From Candidatus Pacearchaeota archaeon UBA73 (GTDB lineage: Archaea > Nanobdellota > Nanobdellia > Pacearchaeales > GW2011-AR1): a stretch of DNA of 64,000 bases. Every line of letters starts with the position of its first letter. The stretch's first letter is position 1. Shown piece after piece: positions 406 through 59,878 of this stretch. The stretch lies in assembly GCA_002496015.1 (NCBI GenBank), contig DAIF01000006.1, positions 7,403-71,402 on the forward strand, read 5' to 3'. A program made the position numbers and the translations under genes. The notes under the pieces are model-generated. The model had not been told where the DNA came from. It was given only the letters and a program-made list of their open reading frames with translations, and made no database searches.

Positions 406-667
406 GGTTCTGTTGAAAATCTTTCAGAAATGTCTGCGCCCAGATAGTCTGATTTGCTTCGCAAATCAATAATTGATAGCAGACATTTCGAGTTTTGCGC
501 AGGTTTCAGATTCCCACTTTGGATTCTCCTACGGAGAAAAACCCTGCTCGCAGACACGAACGTAAACATATTTATTCAACTCGGTTCGTACCATGCTCGC
601 CCTGTCCACCCCAAATCCCTTCGCCCAAATTTTAGTAAACTGCAATTTTCGGTTTTTTCAACAGAGC
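406..667. mobile_element. MITE-like element copy 1, bounded by terminal inverted repeats GGTTCTGTTGAAAAT ... TTTTTTCAACAGAGCC
   Basis: 5' end GGTTCTGTTGAAAATC at 406 and 3' end TTTTCAACAGAGCC ending at 667 are reverse complements of each other. The internal 'module A' (GAAATGTCTGCGCCC...TGATTTGCTTCGCAAATCA...GCAGACATTTCGAG...GCGCAGGTTTCAGATTCCCACTTTGGATTCTCCTACGGAGAAAAACC) is shared nearly verbatim with copies at 14049 and 49544. Confidence 0.6.
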
Positions 668-712: not shown

Positions 713-2266
713 ATGAAAGAGATATCTCTAAGTCCAAGAGACTACCAGCAAAAAATATTCGAAACGGCTAAAGACAATAACACTCTAGTCGTCCTTCCAA
801 CCGGCCTTGGAAAAACGCTCATCGCCTTGATGCTTTCAGTAGAACGCCAAAAAAAGTTTCCGGGCAAAAAAGTCCTTATGCTCGCTCCTACGCGACCTCT
901 AGTAGATCAGCACTACAAAAGCTATCAAAAAAATCTTCCGGAACTCTTTGCAGACCTCCAGTTGTTCACCGGCGAGATTCCCGCAAAGCAACGCCAAAAA
1001 ATTTTTCAGACTGCAGACATAATTTTCTCGACTCCGCAATGCATAGCAAACGATCTCCGTTCCGGGTTATACTCTTTAAGTGATGTCTCGCTACTGATAA
1101 TCGACGAAGCCCATCGTTGCCTGAAAAACTATGATTATACAAAAGTCGTAGATTTTTACAAGCGCCAAACTCCGGATGACCTCAGGAGAATACTCGGTCT
1201 TACTGCCTCTCCGGGAAGCGAACAGGAGAATGTCAAGGAAATTTGTAAACACCTCGATGTTTCAGAGATAGAAATCCGCTCCCGCGATTCTCCGGACGTT
1301 AAGCCCTATCTTCAGGAACTTGAGTTCGAGAAGGTCGTAGTTCCTTTCCCGCCGGAGTTTCTGGAAATTAAACTCTTACTAAAAAAAATATTCGATTCTA
1401 AAATAGAAGAACTCCGCCGGCGCAATTTGCTTTTCGGACCGCCAAATAAGTTCTCCCTGCTTAAACTTCAGGGTCAACTCGCAGCTCGTTACACAAACGC
1501 AAAAGACTTCAACGCGATGATTGGCATGTCCCTTACCGCAACCGCGATAAAAATTGCTCATGCTCTCGAACTTCTCGAAACCCAAACTCTATCCGGCGTT
1601 AACGAATATTTTAATTCATTGATAGAACAGGCAAGCCAGAAAAAATCAAAGGCGGTTCAGAATCTTGTCAAGTCTGCGGAATTCAACGCTGCAAAAATCG
1701 CTGTCCAAAATCTCCTAACAAAACAGGTTGAACATCCGAAAATCGAAGAGACTGCGGTCCTCGTGGAAAACCAATTTAAAGAAAAACAAAACTCGAAGGT
1801 CATAATTTTCACTCAATTCCGCGAAACAGGCACGACCCTCACCCGTCGATTGAATCTCATTCCCGGAATAAACGCTCAGGCATTCTTTGGCCAAGCCAAA
1901 AAATCTGGCACGGGCTTGTCGCAAAAAGAACAAAAAGTAATAATCCAAAAACTCAACGGCGGAGAGATTAACGTCCTCGTAGCAACTTCCATAGGCGAAG
2001 AAGGCCTCGACATCGCAGAAGTCTCCACAGTCATTTTCTATGAACCAATACCGAGCGCGATAAGAAAAATCCAGCGCACAGGCAGAACCGCGAGACTAAA
2101 GCCCGGCAAGTTGATTATATTGGTTACAAAAGACACTCGGGATGTGATAAATCACTATGCTTCAACTGCCCGCGAAAAGAAAATGTACGATGTTCTCAAA
2201 AACGTCAAGGCAGACATCAAAGAAGAGAACTACAAAAAAATAAAAACCTTCAATGACTTCAAATAA
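713..2266 (+). CDS. hef: Hef-type SF2 helicase, stand-alone helicase domain (DEAH box, ERCC4-like helicase)
   Basis: Walker A LPTGLGKT, DEAH box IIDEAHRC and a helicase C-terminal domain. The N-terminal ~120 aa align with the P. furiosus Hef helicase from memory (VLPTGLGKTLIA, LMLAPT.PLV.QH, TASPGS). The ORF ends where the Hef nuclease domain would begin. Confidence 0.8.
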   Translation: MKEISLSPRDYQQKIFETAKDNNTLVVLPTGLGKTLIALMLSVERQKKFPGKKVLMLAPTRPLVDQHYKSYQKNLPELFADLQLFTGEIPAKQRQKIFQTADIIFSTPQCIANDLRSGLYSLSDVSLLIIDEAHRCLKNYDYTKVVDFYKRQTPDDLRRILGLTASPGSEQENVKEICKHLDVSEIEIRSRDSPDVKPYLQELEFEKVVVPFPPEFLEIKLLLKKIFDSKIEELRRRNLLFGPPNKFSLLKLQGQLAARYTNAKDFNAMIGMSLTATAIKIAHALELLETQTLSGVNEYFNSLIEQASQKKSKAVQNLVKSAEFNAAKIAVQNLLTKQVEHPKIEETAVLVENQFKEKQNSKVIIFTQFRETGTTLTRRLNLIPGINAQAFFGQAKKSGTGLSQKEQKVIIQKLNGGEINVLVATSIGEEGLDIAEVSTVIFYEPIPSAIRKIQRTGRTARLKPGKLIILVTKDTRDVINHYASTAREKKMYDVLKNVKADIKEENYKKIKTFNDFK

Positions 2267-2669
2267 AATGTCTCAGAAAATAGCTGACGGGAATACAAAA
2301 ATATTCTATTTTATTGGAATCCTTTTTATAACTGTGTTGATTACTCGCGGCCTTTCATTAATAACTGACCCGGATCCGATTTTTATGGGTTTTGAATTGC
2401 ATCATTTTCATTACGGAATAGTCTTGCTGATTATTATAAACTTGGCAATGCTCTTTGGCAAAAGCCATCCTCGTTTATACTTAATTCTTTCTGCGATCTC
2501 AATCGGACTTATTATAGATGAACTGATCTATATTGCAAACCATATAGAGGGTCCGGTACGTTATGATGCAACGATAAAATCCGCATTCATTTTTGCGCTA
2601 ATCATTGTAATAATAATTTTAATCATTTTCTACGACGTCGTAGGAAAAATCAAAGGCAAAATAAAATGA
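2253..2669 (+). CDS. small polytopic membrane protein (about 4 TM), unknown function
   Basis: Four hydrophobic segments. Its start overlaps the hef stop and its stop overlaps the nuclease start (ATGA), so it is wedged inside the hef-xpf operon. Confidence 0.5.
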   Translation: MTSNKMSQKIADGNTKIFYFIGILFITVLITRGLSLITDPDPIFMGFELHHFHYGIVLLIIINLAMLFGKSHPRLYLILSAISIGLIIDELIYIANHIEGPVRYDATIKSAFIFALIIVIIILIIFYDVVGKIKGKIK

Positions 2670-3322
2670 AATCTCTCTACAATATTTTCTCCGCAAAAAA
2701 AATTCCGGAACAAAAAATAAAAATCCTCATTGACCACCGCGAAAAAAACTCCCTCGTCCCTTCTCTGCTTGCAAAGCACGGCTTCCAACTCGAATGGAAA
2801 CAACTCCCGGTAGCAGACTATATTGTAAGAGAAACCGCAGTCGAGAGAAAAACAGTCTCCGATTTAAATTCGTCTATAATAAACAAACGCATTATCTCCC
2901 AGCTGCTTGAATTAAAACAATATCCAAAACATCTCTTGCTCATCGAGGGAGTCCTCGAAGAAGATTTGTATAATTCCGGAATTCACGAGAACGCCATCCG
3001 AGGTTTTCTCCTTTCAGTCGCACTTGAATTTCAAACTCCTTTAATTTTCACGCACAACGAAGAAGATACTGCAAAATACCTCGAAGTCCTTGCAAAAAAA
3101 GACAAACCTTCAGAGTTCTCACTTAGAGCTTCGAAAATAACATTTTCAAAGGAAGAACAAGTTCAATTTATTCTGGAAGGCTTCCCGCACATCGGGCCGG
3201 TCAAAGCAAAAAAACTTCTTGAAAAATTTCACACACTAAACAATATTTTCAACGCGAGCAAAGAAGAGTTATCTCAGATACTTGGAATAAGAGCAAAAGA
3301 ATTCAAGGATCTTTTGGATTAG
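2666..3322 (+). CDS. ERCC4/XPF-family nuclease domain with C-terminal HhH2 (Hef/XPF nuclease)
   Basis: ILIDHRE ... VERKTVSDL (the ERK catalytic motif). The C-terminal EGFPHIGPVKAKKLLEKF...GIRAKEFK segment is a helix-hairpin-helix pair. Confidence 0.8.
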   Translation: MKSLYNIFSAKKIPEQKIKILIDHREKNSLVPSLLAKHGFQLEWKQLPVADYIVRETAVERKTVSDLNSSIINKRIISQLLELKQYPKHLLLIEGVLEEDLYNSGIHENAIRGFLLSVALEFQTPLIFTHNEEDTAKYLEVLAKKDKPSEFSLRASKITFSKEEQVQFILEGFPHIGPVKAKKLLEKFHTLNNIFNASKEELSQILGIRAKEFKDLLD

Positions 3323-4980: not shown

Positions 4981-5270
4981 AAAAAAATAAGGTCAGCCCA
5001 GATTAAAAAACTATTCTTTAGATTTGCTCGTTGAAAATACTTTTTGGGTTCGGATTATATTGAAAGTGGAGTCTGCAATTTCTGGTTTTTTCAATAATGC
5101 CACAGTATAGGAGCATTTATATAGCCAGGATTTTTCATTTTTTTGACTAGCGGAAGGTTATCTTCGATGCGGTCAGTAAATGGAACGGTATAGTTTAACG
5201 CGGAAATTACGCGCATCGAATGGAAACAGTTTTTTCTTAATGTTAATTAAAGATTCGGGAGGTAAAATAT

Positions 5271-9324: not shown

Positions 9325-9469
9325 GGCTCTGTTGAAAATTTTCGCCTCAGATAATTGGACTTGCCGATTTTGTAATAATATCTCTGCGTTCGTAAATTGG
9401 ACTTGCCGTTGAGTGCGGCGCAAGTCAAATAATAGCGGCTCGGCGCGTTTTTGGCTTTTTCAACAGAGC
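9325..9469. mobile_element. short MITE-like element (subtype 2) with the same terminal inverted repeats but a different core
   Basis: GGCTCTGTTGAAAATT at 9325 and TTTTCAACAGAGC ending at 9469. The core contains two direct copies of AATTGGACTTGCCG plus GCAAGTCAAATAATAG. The same core motifs recur at 46095..46354 and 59390..59608. Confidence 0.5.
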
Positions 9470-9482
9470 ATGTATAAGAAGA

Positions 9483-13362: not shown

Positions 13363-13575
13363 ATGTGCTTAGCTGTTCCGGGCAAGATTGTGGGGATTGA
13401 AGGCGATGTCGCGACAGTAGATTATGGGAGCGAGAGGCGAGTGGCGCGAATAGTTTCCGGGGAATATTCCATTGGAGATTATGTAATTGTGTCTGCTAAG
13501 GTGGTGTCGGAGAAGGTTGACGAGGAACAGGTGAAAGGTTGGATGGAACTTTTGAATGCTGGAGAAAATTGTTGA
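13363..13575 (+). CDS. hypC: hydrogenase maturation factor HypC
   Basis: MCLAVPGKIVGI start (Met-Cys N-terminus) and C-terminal GDYVIV motif. 70 aa. Confidence 0.8.
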   Translation: MCLAVPGKIVGIEGDVATVDYGSERRVARIVSGEYSIGDYVIVSAKVVSEKVDEEQVKGWMELLNAGENC

Positions 13576-13576
13576 T

Positions 13577-14059
13577 ATGGAGCCGGAAGTTCTTTTTTTG
13601 AGATGCGCTTTTCCTTGCACGGAAGGGAAGGTACATAGGAATGAAATAACACGGGATGATTTTGATTATCTGGAGGAAGCTGCGAGAGAAGGTAGGGTTG
13701 TTAAGCATGAGATGTTAGGAAGGGTTTATTCCTTTGCGGTTGCTGAAATGACTAAAGTTGCTGATGAATTGGGAAAGTCTCTTTGGGATAAGGCTGTTGT
13801 CGAGGAGTATTTCTTTGTTAGGCATAATCAAGTTATTGATGCACGGGAGGGACCGTATTCTGCGGCGCCAGAAGTAATGTGCGAGTATTGCAAGGTTTAT
13901 GATGCGGAAGTAATTGATGTCGGAAAGAGAGATTTATTGGTGAGGTATGGCGATAAAACCAGGCACGTTCTGAAAGATTTTGTGCAAGACGCAAAAGAAG
14001 GGGACAGGGTTAAGATTCATCAAGGTTATGCAGTGATGATTGAGGATGGGTTCTGTTGA
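13577..14059 (+). CDS. HypC-like C-terminal domain protein with ~100-aa N-terminal extension
   Basis: The last ~60 aa (MCEYCKVYDAEVIDVGKRDLLVRYGDKTRHVLKDFVQDAKEGDRVKIHQGYAVMIEDG) mirror HypC (MC.., VDFG..R.V.L.LV.DAKxGDxVLVHVGFA). An internal ATG at 13877 would give a stand-alone 60-aa HypC paralogue. The start is chosen just after the hypC stop. Confidence 0.5.
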   Translation: MEPEVLFLRCAFPCTEGKVHRNEITRDDFDYLEEAAREGRVVKHEMLGRVYSFAVAEMTKVADELGKSLWDKAVVEEYFFVRHNQVIDAREGPYSAAPEVMCEYCKVYDAEVIDVGKRDLLVRYGDKTRHVLKDFVQDAKEGDRVKIHQGYAVMIEDGFC

Positions 14060-14260
14060 AAATCTTTCCGAAATGTCTGCGCCCACCCGGATAATCTGAT
14101 TTGCGAAGCAAATCAGTAATTGATAGTAGACATTTCGAGTTTTGCGCAGGTTTCAGATTCCCACTTTGGATTCTCCTACGGAGAAAACCCTCCCTTTCCA
14201 CCTCTCCGCCCTTCGCCCCAAATTCTAGTAAACCTGCAGTTTGCGACTTTTTCAACAGAA
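14049..14260. mobile_element. MITE-like element copy 2 (module A hairpin plus short module B)
   Basis: GGTTCTGTTGAAAATCTTTCCGAAATGTCTGCGCCCACCC... at 14049. It ends ...GTAAACCTGCAGTTTGCGACTTTTTCAACAGA at about 14260. Confidence 0.6.
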
Positions 14261-14309
14261 CATTGAGGATGAAAAAGAATAAAAACTAACTTTTCTTTTT
14301 TTCGGCGAG

Positions 14310-22445: not shown

Positions 22446-22733
22446 TTTATTGCAATAACTTTTATACATCTTTTGATAGTTGATTTGATTGGCAAGCATG
22501 TTGTTGTGACTGTGGGAGCAATGACGCGGGAGGAAACTGTGCGTAGATTGTTTTTAGTCATAATAATAGATGTCTTGTCTGGAGTTTGTTGATTTTGTTT
22601 AAGTTGTGTCGGTGATGAGCAACTTTTAAAATATCTGCGCGCGTGGCTGCGAGCAGGGTGCAGACATCTCGAAAAATTCTAACAGAGCAGGCTACACCGT
22701 CAAAAATAAATAGTCTCCTCTCTTAAATAAAAA

Positions 22734-38922: not shown

Positions 38923-39050
38923 CTTCCAAATAGAAAACGAGCGTTTATATAATTTCTTAAACTATCTCGCTTACCGGAGCGTTTGTAGATAAATAGTCGT
39001 TCGCTAGCGCCTTTATGCGTCATTTGACTTTTTCAACAAAGTCAAGACTA

Positions 39051-39399
39051 GGCTCTGTTGAAAATCTCTCTTGCGCAGGTTTCAGATTCCCACTTCGGAT
39101 TCTCCTGCGGAGAAAAACCTAACTCACGACCCCACACGCAATTGTATGCAAATTAATCTAGCATTTGATACCCTCCCACCCGCCCCACGGAATATTGTCC
39201 CCCAGTCACCCCGCCGCCCAGACAATATTCCATAACGCTAGATTAATCTGAACTTACTCGTGCGAAGTGCGCTCGCCCTGTCCGCCTCTCCGCCCTTCTG
39301 CTCGCAGCCACGCTCGAAATTAATCAACCTTTGCACTCGCGTAACGTGCTCGCCCCAAATGTTAGTAAACCTGCAGTTTGCGACTTTTTCAACAGAGCC
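39051..39399. mobile_element. MITE-like element copy 3 (no module-A hairpin; central nested palindromes; long module B)
   Basis: GGCTCTGTTGAAAATCTCTCTTGCGCAGGTTTCAGATTCCCACTTCGG... at 39051. Internal inverted repeats ATTAATCTAGC/GCTAGATTAAT and GGAATATTGTC/GACAATATTCC. Ends ...CTGCAGTTTGCGACTTTTTCAACAGAGCC at 39399. Confidence 0.6.
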
Positions 39400-45768: not shown

Positions 45769-46095
45769 ATGCGCTCGGATGACGAGGACAGGAGTTTAAT
45801 CGGAAGGGTTTTTGGTAGATTATTTTTTGCAGATAGGGTGTTGTCTATGCGGACCCGAGCATTGGTTTGTGACAAAGAAGAACTTGTTGAACTCGTTGAG
45901 TTAGGTGATGATATGTTTGAAGACTGGGGGTTTGTTCGCCGTCTGCAGAGAAGGTATGACTCTGGTGTGAAAAGCCGATTTTATGCTTTGAGTTCGCGAG
46001 ATGCAAGGCATCGGTATGATAAAGCTTGGCATTATTTAGGTTTTATTCTTAAAGAAAATAAGGATTATATTCGGGCGGTGCGGGAACTGTTTTAG
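45769..46095 (+). CDS. hypothetical protein
   Basis: 108-aa ORF with no recognisable motifs. Confidence 0.35.
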   Translation: MRSDDEDRSLIGRVFGRLFFADRVLSMRTRALVCDKEELVELVELGDDMFEDWGFVRRLQRRYDSGVKSRFYALSSRDARHRYDKAWHYLGFILKENKDYIRAVRELF

Positions 46096-46354
46096 GATCC
46101 TATTGAAAATCTTTTGAAATGTCGGCTATCATTTACCTGTTGCGTAGCAAACTAATTTGGTGGGCGTAGGTTTTGTGTAAACTTCCTTACTACGCGAGTC
46201 GGGATAATAAACGCAATCTTGCTTACTGGAAAATTGGATGCCTGACTTTGCGGCGGCATCGAAGAATATGTAATTTCGTTTATTGGAAATTGGACGCGCA
46301 GTTTCTCACAGAGTCTTTGTGAGTCAAATTTGTAGACAACTTTTTCAACAGAGC
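46095..46354. repeat. degenerate MITE-like element (subtype 2 core)
   Basis: 5' end GGATCCTATTGAAAATCTTTTGAAATGTCGGC, a degenerate TIR plus module A start. Core has AAATTGGATGCC / AAATTGGACGCGCAG. 3' end CTTTTTCAACAGAGC at about 46354, adjacent to the minD stop. Confidence 0.45.
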
Positions 46355-46358
46355 AGTT

Positions 46359-49073: not shown

Positions 49074-49184
49074 GCACGGATGGCGAAATCGAAACGAAGT
49101 TTCTCAATCGCCATCTTCAAACAACGCACGGATGGCGAAAAGCAAAACGCAAAACGTTTTTCATGCTCGCCATCTTTAGACCCT
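49074..49184 (+). repeat. two tandem ~52-59-bp hairpin repeats, each beginning with the first 14 nt of tRNA-Cys (GCACGGATGGCGAA)
   Basis: Repeat 1 starts at 49074 and repeat 2 at 49126. In each, GATGGCGA pairs with TCGCCATC downstream to give an 8-bp stem and a 21-28-nt loop. They lie immediately upstream of tRNA-Cys. Confidence 0.6.
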
Positions 49185-49257
49185 GCACGGATGGCGAAGT
49201 GGTTAACGCGCTCGGCTGCAGCCCGAGTATCCCCCGGTTCGAACCCGGGTCCGTGCT
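49185..49257 (+). tRNA. tRNA-Cys (anticodon GCA)
   Basis: GCACGGA acceptor, CTCGG-CTGCAGC-CCGAG anticodon arm, CCCGG-TTCGAAC-CCGGG T-arm, TCCGTGC 3' acceptor. No encoded CCA. Confidence 0.75.
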
Positions 49258-49543: not shown

Positions 49544-49883
49544 GGCTCTGTTGAAAATCTTTCCGAAATGTCTGTCTGCGCCCACCCGCTCGGATAGTCT
49601 GATTTGCTTCGCAAATCAATAATTGATAGCAGACATTTCGAGTTTTGCGCAGGTTTCGGATTCCCACTTCGGATTCTCCTGCGGAGAAAACCCCCCCTTT
49701 CCACCTCTCCGCCCTTCGCCCCAAATTCTAGTAAACCTGCATGCATGCGCAGCCCAATCTGAGCGGGTGGCGAGCGCACTTCGCACTAGTAAATTAAGCA
49801 AAGATTGATTGCGTTCGGGGTAGCGAGCAGGGGCGCAAGCGCGACAAATTCAGCTGCGCATTTAAGACTTTTTCAACAGAGCC
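49544..49883. mobile_element. MITE-like element copy 4 (module A hairpin plus extended 3' module)
   Basis: GGCTCTGTTGAAAATCTTTCCGAAATGTCTG... at 49544 and ...GACTTTTTCAACAGAGCC at 49883. Long-range inverted repeat CCCACCCGCTC / GAGCGGGTGG inside. Confidence 0.6.
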
Positions 49884-51725: not shown

Positions 51726-52010
51726 TGGAACTCCAAGACGCCATAAATTCTAGGCGCAGCATCAGAGCTTTCGAAAATAAAAAGTTCCAAAGAAGATAAT
51801 CCTCAAACTGATAGACAGCACAACTAAAGCTCCCTCGGCCTGCAACAGACAACCCGGGATCTATTGGAGTTATGGTCCTTACTGCAACTTGTGTAAAACT
51901 CTAATAAACAAACTTGATGACAACCTCTTTATCCCGGTTTTCGCTGGTTTCAACGGCCAAATCGTTCTAACAATTCTAAAGATTATTAATTAACTTTAAA
52001 TAAGTGCACT
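51726..52010 (+). pseudogene. degraded nitroreductase-family gene (multiple frameshifts/stops)
   Basis: The ATG follows the glyS stop and encodes MELQDAINSRRSIRAFENKKF, a canonical nitroreductase N-terminus, then a stop. A shifted frame encodes TKAPSACNRQPGIYW (compare APSAGNxQPW). No intact ORF remains. Confidence 0.5.
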
Positions 52011-52023
52011 TCTTAGAAATTGC

Positions 52024-59232: not shown

Positions 59233-59325
59233 TTTTAAAAGATGAAATATGGGTTATTAAGGTTTAGGTTAACGGACGTTGTTGTCATGGTTTCTTGACA
59301 TTCTGGCTTTTCAACAAAGCGGAAG

Positions 59326-59608
59326 AGTTCTGTTCTTTCCGAAATGTCTTACTCGCGGTCACGCGCGGATTTGTTGGGAGTAATTTGGATGTTGGAGGCG
59401 GGTAAAAATTGGACTTGCCGCTTTCATAACAATAACAAACTATTTTTGTTCTTAAATTGGACTTGCCGCTTTCGAGAGGTGCAAGTCAAATAATAGGCAA
59501 CTTCGCTTTTTCTTAAATTGGACGCCCTTCTTAGCGACTGGCGTCTTAATAATAGCCGCTCGCTGCGCTCGCTTGTTGCTCGGTGCGTTTTGGTTTTTTC
59601 AGCAGAGC
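59326..59608. repeat. degenerate composite MITE (module-A-like 5' end, subtype-2 core, 3' TIR)
   Basis: GAGTTCTGTTCTTTCCGAAATGTCT at 59326 is a degraded 5' end. The core has AAATTGGACTTGCCGCTTTC twice plus GCAAGTCAAATAATAG. It ends GGTTTTTTCAGCAGAGCC at 59608. An orphan 3'-TIR-like GGCTTTTCAACAAAGC sits at 59305-59320. Confidence 0.45.
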
Positions 59609-59680
59609 CGGTTCGTGACGCGCCCGCTCTTTCGCCTCAATATTCGGAAAATCAACAAACTCCGGACAGAGTTATATTAA

Positions 59681-59878
59681 GGGTTCTGTTGAAAATCTCT
59701 CTTGCGCAGGTTTCAGACTCCCACTTTGGATTTCTCCTATGGAGAAAAACCCGCCCTGTCCGCCACCCCGCCCTTCTGCTCGCAGCCACGCTCGAAATTA
59801 ATCAACCTTTGCACTCGCGTAACGTGCTCGCCCCAAAATTTAGTAAACCTGCTAATTCTGACTTTTTTCAACAGAGTC
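59681..59878. mobile_element. MITE-like element copy 5 (no hairpin module; long module B)
   Basis: GGTTCTGTTGAAAATCTCTCTTGCGCAGGTTTCAGACTCCCACTTTGG at 59681. It ends ...CTGACTTTTTTCAACAGAGTCC at about 59878. Confidence 0.6.

Follow-up and report, generated by a model that had tools for sequence, protein, structure and literature searches.

The elements and their termini

The window, which is the whole 64-kb stretch of DNA analysed here, encodes proteins that include Hef, GlyRS, PurB, a group-3-like NiFe hydrogenase and acetyl-CoA synthetase. The closest named homologues of the GlyRS, at 70-82% identity, all belong to Nanoarchaeota or Pacearchaeota MAGs, indicating that the host, which comes from anaerobic digesters, is a DPANN archaeon. 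A host among the Bathyarchaeota, considered since a close relative of the window (see below) stems from the metagenome of a paper on Bathyarchaeota, was rejected on the strength of these GlyRS homologues. Dispersed over the window are short elements with a common terminus. The 14-nt sequence GGCTCTGTTGAAAA is found 17 times on the two strands when up to two mismatches are allowed; dinucleotide shuffles contain it 0.80 times on average and 4 times at most. [quoted passage not shown] An initial reading of the letters alone (the sequence-only reading) had described the same seven elements, with right-hand coordinates that were 1-2 nt short.

The seven copies, all on the + strand, are located at 406-668 (copy 1), 9325-9470 (copy 2), 14049-14262 (copy 3), 39051-39399 (copy 4), 46095-46355 (copy 5), 49544-49883 (copy 6) and 59682-59878 (copy 7); the left terminus of copy 5 is degenerate (GGATCCTATTGAAAA). 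The family also includes a degenerate composite (59308-59609, +), a degenerate fragment (22629-22688, -) and solo ends, among them an IRL-type right-end remnant at 5070-5101 (+) and an older end at 39030-39043, 7 nt from copy 4. The composite and the fragment had likewise been recognized as degenerate relatives in the sequence-only reading, the latter at 22567-22679, and both are real. Taken together, the seven pairs, the composite, the fragment and the solo ends amount to 2,180 nt, or 3.4% of the window, and the density of about 8 elements per 64 kb is equivalent to approximately 125 per Mb.

The two ends of an element are not equivalent past the first 14 nt. The left end, GGCTCTGTTGAAAATCTCTC, is of the IRR type and runs on beyond the 14-nt terminus as GAAAATCT(C/T)T, while the right end, GGCTCTGTTGAAAAAGTC, is of the IRL type and runs on as GAAAAAGTC. 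All eight elements (starting at 406, 9325, 14049, 39051, 46095, 49544, 59326 and 59682) lie the same way round, opening on the + strand with the IRR-type end and closing with the IRL-type end. The probability of such an arrangement by chance is about 0.8%, and the shared orientation may reflect the direction of replication or the history of the elements. Twice, a right end of the GGCTTTG variant (TTTTCAACAAAG..) stands alone 4-7 nt ahead of the left end of another element (39030-39050 and 59308-59330), an arrangement indicating that new copies went in beside an older terminus.

The elements are present, or contigs break at them, in independently assembled data (the NCBI contig, Logan and, for a close relative, ENA). 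The same contig is found in the Logan assembly of SRR5037222, in which contigs break at the elements.

Target-site duplications and neighbouring genes

The flanks of 16 elements, drawn from the window, the close relative and other DPANN assemblies, were compared for direct repeats of 9 bp. A match of at least 7/9 is seen in 11/16 elements and is perfect in 7/16; only 0.24% of control 9-mers reach 7/9. Thus 9-bp duplications flank most copies, and the check for target-site duplications (TSDs) that had been proposed together with the sequence-only reading has a positive outcome. Copies from metagenomes (see below) add three further perfect 9-bp TSDs.

For the window copies alone, 5/7 have a TSD match of at least 7/9. 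The duplications are perfect for copy 2 (TGTATAAGA on both sides) and copy 3 (TTGAGGATG on both sides), match at 8/9 positions for copy 1 (CATTCTACC and TATTCTACC) and copy 4 (TCAAGACTA and CCAAGACTA), and match at 7/9 for copy 6 (CTCATGATA and CCCATAATA). Copy 5 has only a shifted 6-nt duplication, GTTTTA, and copy 7 has none (1/9).

The lack of a duplication at copy 7 is expected if this copy was made by recombination or deletion between two elements, and the corresponding region of the close relative suggests just such an event. There (L125, 8102-9900, compared with 59308-59878 of the window), a methyltransferase gene and a HIT-family gene lie between two MITE parts, whose counterparts in the window are positions 59308-59439 and the right end of copy 7. 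The two extra genes make the window arrangement at 59308-59878 look like a recombinational deletion from one MITE to another, which would explain the missing TSD.

Two copies touch the ends of open reading frames. Copy 3 sits in the final codons of the ORF at 13556-14059, changing ...IEDEKE* to ...IEDGFC*, and the close relative is arranged alike; the stop codon TGA (14057-14059) is provided by the left terminus of the element. The first base of copy 5 is also the final base of the TAG stop codon (46093-46095) of the ORF at 45769-46095.

Interior modules

The interiors are mosaics built on a shared non-coding core, and two subtypes can be distinguished. Five copies contain the core, which consists of ATTCCCAC followed by a 7-bp hairpin; it occupies positions 498-555 (+) of copy 1, and the other four are at 14145-14199, 39074-39131, 49648-49704 and 59705-59761. 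The second subtype features AATTGGACTTGCCG units, each a GACTTGC...GCAAGTC hairpin; these are found in copy 2 and in the composite at 59308, and more weakly in copy 5, whose interior is divergent.

A long nested hairpin, denoted module A, with the arms CGAAATGTCTG and CAGACATTTCG, is present in the subtype-1 copies 1 (425-492), 3 (14070-14139) and 6 (49565-49642), and is missing from copies 4 and 7, which have a 3' module in common. Copy 4 consists of the basic element with a nested palindromic module at approximately 39139-39262 (arms AATTAATCTAGC and GGAATATTGTC), and copy 6 holds an inverted partial subtype-1 segment (49739-49862). Copy 7, at 197 bp, has neither module A nor the palindromic module of copy 4. 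The composite starts with a solo end (59308-59321) and a left end that is truncated; a segment of subtype 1b and three units of subtype 2 lead from there to a right terminus. The layout given by the sequence-only reading, with a 5' hairpin module in copies 1, 2 and 4 and a 3' module in copies 3 and 5, agrees with this arrangement if its copy numbers are taken to mean the five subtype-1 copies.

The basic element was traced in metagenomes with a pattern consisting of the terminus, a gap of 10-40 nt and then ATTCCCAC, which returned 24 loci; no match was obtained in metagenomes with the lineage-specific core TTGCGCAGGTTTCRGAYTCCCAC. Where the second end was located, the elements measure 138-204 bp, and it is three of these that have the perfect 9-bp TSDs mentioned above. 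One of them, L139 (141 bp), aligns with window subtype 1 from end to end. The parts of the body follow one another in the order terminus, T-rich spacer, (G)GATTCCCAC, hairpin, AAAACCC with a C-rich tract, GCCCCAA, GTAAACCTGCA and terminus, and this basic element of about 140 bp recurs across DPANN metagenomes. Since these short elements match subtype 1 without the additional modules, what had been described as a precise deletion of the 5' module from two copies is better read as a nested insertion in the other three: the absence of the module from two subtype-1 copies is correct, but nesting into a basic element of about 140-200 bp is simpler than deletion. Module A is not flanked by an unambiguous duplication, and so its nested insertion remains an inference from the comparison of these sequences.

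The inner hairpin of module A (444-470, 14095-14121 and 49612-49638) has an 8-bp stem, TGATTTGC/GCAAATCA. Copies 1 and 6 have TTC as the loop, where copy 3 has GAA, an exact inversion that is a signature of template switching in a quasi-palindrome. A search of the 64-kb window for canonical G-quadruplex-type motifs (four runs of G3+ with loops of up to 7 nt) returned only two, at 600-626 and 39171-39186 on the minus strand, both within MITEs; the motif in copy 4 is GGGGCGGGTGGGAGGG (39171-39186).

Cognate insertion sequences

The window itself contains no cognate transposase, in keeping with the sequence-only reading, in which no transposase gene was seen: tblastn with the transposases of the cognate insertion sequences (ISs) described below gave nothing, the best E value being 0.76. 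This supports the reading of the elements as MITEs. An autonomous partner with the same TIRs, which the sequence-only reading had expected, does exist in other DPANN assemblies (L118, L031, L130, L131 and J144), but none is found in the 72 kb of the host genome that the analysis covered (the window and a further 8.4 kb).

A scan of species genomes with a 17-nt terminus, for which about 280 chance matches are expected by arithmetic and in which the host genome lies outside the matches listed, returned among the matches listed mostly chance occurrences in bacterial coding sequence. Among these same matches are many loci from Woese-, Pace- and Nanoarchaeota MAGs, several of which contain an IS of about 0.9 kb. 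The IS in L118 is 895 bp long and is flanked by a perfect 9-bp TSD (GTTTTGGGC), and that in L031 measures about 0.88 kb. The complete IS of L130 has as its IRL (GGCTCTGTTGAAAAAGTC) and IRR (GGCTCTGTTGAAAATCTCTC) precisely the sequences that form the right and the left end, respectively, of the window elements, and an IS end from Pacearchaeota J144 is identical to the left end of copy 4 over 26 nt. An internally deleted IS of 528 bp (L069) represents an intermediate form. Three matches were obtained when viral contigs were scanned with the terminus; these seem to be coding sequence and are without a second end, indicating no link to viruses.

The proteins encoded by the cognate ISs are about 264-300 aa long and match the Pfam family DDE_Tnp_1; two of them score 151 and 141 bits on the NCBIfam model NF033579, for which the cut-off is 140, and the motif Y-x2-R-x3-E-x6-K is visible. 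At E<=1e-10, a homologue search yielded 769 proteins, of which the best 120 are about 264 aa long and are mostly encoded on contigs of about 1 kb, as would be expected for a collapsed multicopy IS; among these 120, many have a C-terminus translated from the IS terminus, which gives ..ERFSTEP or ..EIFNRA according to the frame. In many members of this clade (the homologues, L130 and L131) the transposase ORF crosses IRR, so that the terminus encodes the C-terminal residues. On the IRL side, 5'-UTR hairpins are seen, one of them over a GAGGTG ribosome-binding site.

The termini, the target duplication and the transposase model together assign these elements to the IS903 group of the IS5 family. 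The termini start with GGC and resemble GGCTTTGTTGAA. Compared with the end of IS903, GGCTTTGTTGAATAAATCG, which was confirmed in at least 5000 plasmid records, the first 12 nt are identical at 11/12 positions in the window MITEs and at 12/12 in the IS L131. The 9-bp target duplication is that of the IS903 group, and is perfect in L118. A DDE transposase of the IS5/IS903 type is encoded by the cognate ISs and not by the window. The IS903-type transposase of pSC101 scores 352 bits on NF033579, and aligns with the DPANN transposase at 22% identity (E 2e-10). The DPANN elements thus resemble IS903 and IS102 of enterobacterial plasmids and Tn903 in the terminus GGCT(T/C)TGTTGAA, the 9-bp target duplication and an NF033579 transposase. 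They differ in being archaeal and in the sizes of the IS (about 0.9 kb compared with about 1.05 kb) and of the transposase (about 264 aa compared with 307-322 aa); the window, moreover, carries only short non-autonomous derivatives.

Comparison with related genomes

A relative that is about 90-94% identical to the host is present in a biogas-biofilm metagenome (ERZ925065). At all five sites that can be compared (copies 1, 2, 3, 6 and 7) the relative is occupied too, and it shares both the junction and the duplicated 9-mer with the window. Judged from these shared junctions, the insertions at the five sites predate the split of the two digester lineages. The interiors at the shared sites differ. 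At the sites of copies 1 and 3, the relative has extra subtype-2 units nested at ...GTAAACCTGCA^. At the site of copy 2 (L124, 4663-4779, where the lineages are 94% identical), it has a 117-bp subtype-1b element in the opposite orientation with the same TSD, TGTATAAGA, which implies either that a composite ancestor underwent inversion and deletions or that gene conversion replaced the element. The site of copy 6 contains tandemly amplified palindromic pieces: in L135 (1-200), a unit of about 28 nt (ACCACCCCGCGCGATATTGTCTCCCGCC) occurs three times in tandem and one of about 29 nt twice, one arm of a nested palindrome having expanded here in the manner of a minisatellite.

The relative has two further copies of its own, both with perfect TSDs (TTACTTAAC and AGTCTGACC). 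Their locations were considered as empty sites in the window and rejected, neither being clean: one lies in a strain-specific segment of 1.17 kb (L122) and the other beside a gene that has decayed in the window (L125). Among the sites compared there is no clean empty site; one candidate is strongly diverged.

More distant relatives, at about 77% identity, are represented by sampled regions of 4.4 kb (L134) and 19.7 kb (L133; GCA_018817405.1), in which neither the terminus nor the core is found. L134 and the window become homologous again 4 nt past the right end of copy 6, and at this site the homology is confined to the right flank. Copy 6, the sole site comparable in that lineage, therefore appears from this alignment to have been inserted after the split from L134.

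The internal hairpin

In an alignment of 16 distinct copies from the window and the metagenomes, the 7-bp helix that follows ATTCCCAC is paired in 93.7% of cells, and both partners have changed in 6/7 of its base pairs. The alignment scores 0.78 for covariation, compared with 0.26 in shuffled alignments (0/500 as high) and with values of up to 0.165 when the partners are slid; the same helix is predicted independently by RNAalifold. The stems read TCTCC/GGAGA in the window, and TCACT/AGTGA, TTGACC/GGTCAA, CTCAGAC/GTCTGAG and CTCGTCT/AGACGAG outside it. A covariance model built from the 16-copy alignment has exactly five matches in the window, which together with the modules common to different copies demonstrates a shared non-coding interior in dispersed elements; the model has no match in the relatives at about 77% identity (L133 and L134). 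The invariance of ATTCCCAC is by construction, as it belonged to the search pattern, and the aligned copies are kin, so that the covariation counts do not represent independent events. Short DNA palindromes can also stay complementary through template-switch repair, without selection.

Whole copies fold much better than shuffled sequences (z -6.5 and -6.7). A scan of the window with Rfam 15, at gathering thresholds and at E<=1, found nothing on the elements, the only matches being three tRNAs and two weak antisense matches on tRNAs. The hairpin is followed by an A-run on one strand and preceded by a T-run on the other, and hence is not a hairpin-plus-T terminator on either strand. Readings of the core as a CRISPR repeat, a tRNA-derived (SINE-like) sequence or a C/D-box sRNA were rejected by eye, as the diagnostic motifs are all missing.

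Origin of the elements

The elements are best explained, with a probability of about 0.88, as MITEs, that is, as non-autonomous derivatives or hitch-hikers of the small (about 0.9 kb) IS903-type ISs of the IS5 family that are widespread in DPANN archaea. The suggestion of the sequence-only reading that they are mobilised in trans is supported by the TIRs, the 9-bp TSDs, the dispersed copies with a shared non-coding interior and the absence of a cognate transposase from the window. Each element keeps both distinct ends of the IS, of the IRR type to the left and of the IRL type to the right. By analogy with the family, a DDE transposase of about 264 aa, acting in trans, would bind these ends and insert the element at a 9-bp staggered cut, giving rise to the 9-bp duplications. 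The interior is not transposase sequence; it is unrelated to the IS, with which the family shares only the ends, and corresponds to the non-coding body of about 140 bp, with its conserved 7-bp hairpin, that is common to MITEs of other DPANN lineages. This basic element would then have been enlarged and scrambled by nested palindromic modules, tandem amplification of units, inversion, and events of recombination or deletion that involved two copies. Most insertions would be older than the split from the relative at about 90-94% identity, and copy 6 younger than that from the relative at about 77%; as the insertions mostly precede the closer split, current activity is probably low or episodic.

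The conserved ends and scrambled interiors could also be produced if each copy were a full-length IS that had decayed independently in situ, rather than a member of a family amplified in its short form. Such decay has at least one tangible counterpart in the internally deleted IS of L069, and the solo ends and scrambled remnants of the window are what it might leave behind. It is, however, very improbable here, given that five window copies have the same non-IS core, that many unrelated contigs contain the body of about 140 bp, flanked there by separate TSDs, and that transposase coding sequence can be traced by tblastn in no copy. A shared non-IS core and a body with TSDs of its own mean that the short form must have been amplified. 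There is scarcely any likelihood that the elements are instead a palindromic mosaic of the REP/BIME kind, spread by a tyrosine transposase (RAYT, IS200/IS605-like) and not by a DDE enzyme, even though they share with such repeats a mosaic of short hairpin modules in variable numbers, and one Pacearchaeales genome is reported to contain a RAYT (bioRxiv 10.64898/2026.05.13.725050). REP/RAYT systems produce no 9-bp duplications, and their palindromes are without termini identical over 14-26 nt to the IRL and IRR of a DDE IS; in the elements described here, TSDs are present and the termini are those of DDE ISs.

It would be quite another matter if the elements were primarily structured-RNA or regulatory modules of the host (sRNA genes, terminators or insulators), with inverted termini that are incidental. 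The strong folding, the compensatory changes and covariation of the hairpin, and the positions kept between the window and the close relative all speak for a role of this kind. The 9-bp TSDs and the identity of the termini to IS ends are difficult to reconcile with it, as are the interiors that differ between close relatives at orthologous sites and are even inverted, the absence of any copy from L133 and L134, and the lack of an Rfam match even at E<=1. An insertion after the split at about 77% identity and before that of the digester lineages likewise argues against a conserved, syntenic RNA gene. The sequence-only reading had held that compensatory mutations at syntenic positions in other genomes would point to such genes; compensatory changes are indeed present, but the copies that differ by them are mobile and belong to separate loci and organisms, not to a syntenic RNA gene. 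A primary function as RNA or regulatory modules is accordingly very unlikely, although individual copies might have been exapted.

Within the MITE interpretation, it is conceivable, if rather unlikely, that the body of about 140 bp has been kept by selection across DPANN lineages since the core of ATTCCCAC and hairpin is a functional module, such as a cis-acting enhancer of transposition, a binding site for the transposase or a host factor, or a co-opted RNA or DNA structure; the fixed sites would then be cassette-like hot spots, whose contents are swapped by gene conversion.

Relation to known elements

MITEs are an ordinary kind of element, and what is notable here is their density, their mosaic interiors and the conserved internal hairpin. 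Prokaryotic MITEs with an interior unrelated to that of the parent IS are exemplified by the SM elements of Sulfolobus and are known as 'type II' MITEs in the IS literature. The window family resembles these in being short, non-coding, multi-copy and intergenic, with the termini and the TSD of an IS; it differs in extending over several DPANN lineages with a homologous body of about 140 bp and a covarying hairpin, and in being heavily nested and mosaic in this genome. Modular mosaics of hairpin units between conserved ends are also characteristic of the Correia elements of Neisseria, the BOX elements of pneumococci and the BIMEs of E. coli, the last of which depend on a tyrosine transposase and produce no TSD. 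Here the similarity lies in the modularity, the variable number of hairpin units, the strong secondary structure and the proximity to genes, while the termini, the length of the TSD and the presumed transposase are different; the window family, furthermore, is known from sequence alone.

A survey of MITEs (Nucleic Acids Res 2024, PMC11602168) found that DPANN have the highest densities among archaea, with 105 MITEs/Mb in 'a Woesearchaea genome'. The density of about 125/Mb in the window is in line with this catalogue, which offers counts only. In the searchable literature on the terminus sequence and on DPANN MITEs, there is no description of the window family, of its IS partner or of its structure, the survey having been compared by its counts.

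The genomes of DPANN archaea are tiny and are usually called streamlined, and yet about 3.4% of these 64 kb is non-coding mobile DNA of a single family. The elements mark nearly every structural difference seen between the two close lineages, including a probable deletion of two genes, the swap or inversion of an element, the amplification of units and an altered 3' end of a gene. Through its terminus, duplication length and transposase model, the family ties an archaeal mobile element to the enterobacterial IS903 group, and its family-wide covarying hairpin is a concrete candidate cis element for studies of MITE recognition. The repeats break short-read assemblies of genomes such as this one, and the covariance model or the terminus pattern could be used to flag and count them.

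Other features of the region

The Hef gene of the window (713-3322) is split into a helicase of 517 aa, an ORF of 138 aa and an ERCC4 nuclease of 218 aa, and the same split is seen in the close relative (L123). Downstream of the GlyRS gene, a nitroreductase-like gene is reduced in the window to a short, frame-broken remnant (51726-52020, compared with 2156-2670 of L135); the relative has a longer nitroreductase-like gene, which is followed by a composite MITE of 468 bp. Finally, a 43-nt direct repeat with 77% identity (49108-49150 and 49167-49209) is located immediately upstream of tRNA-Cys, with an overlap into the 5' part of the tRNA, and may be a partial duplication of the tRNA flank.
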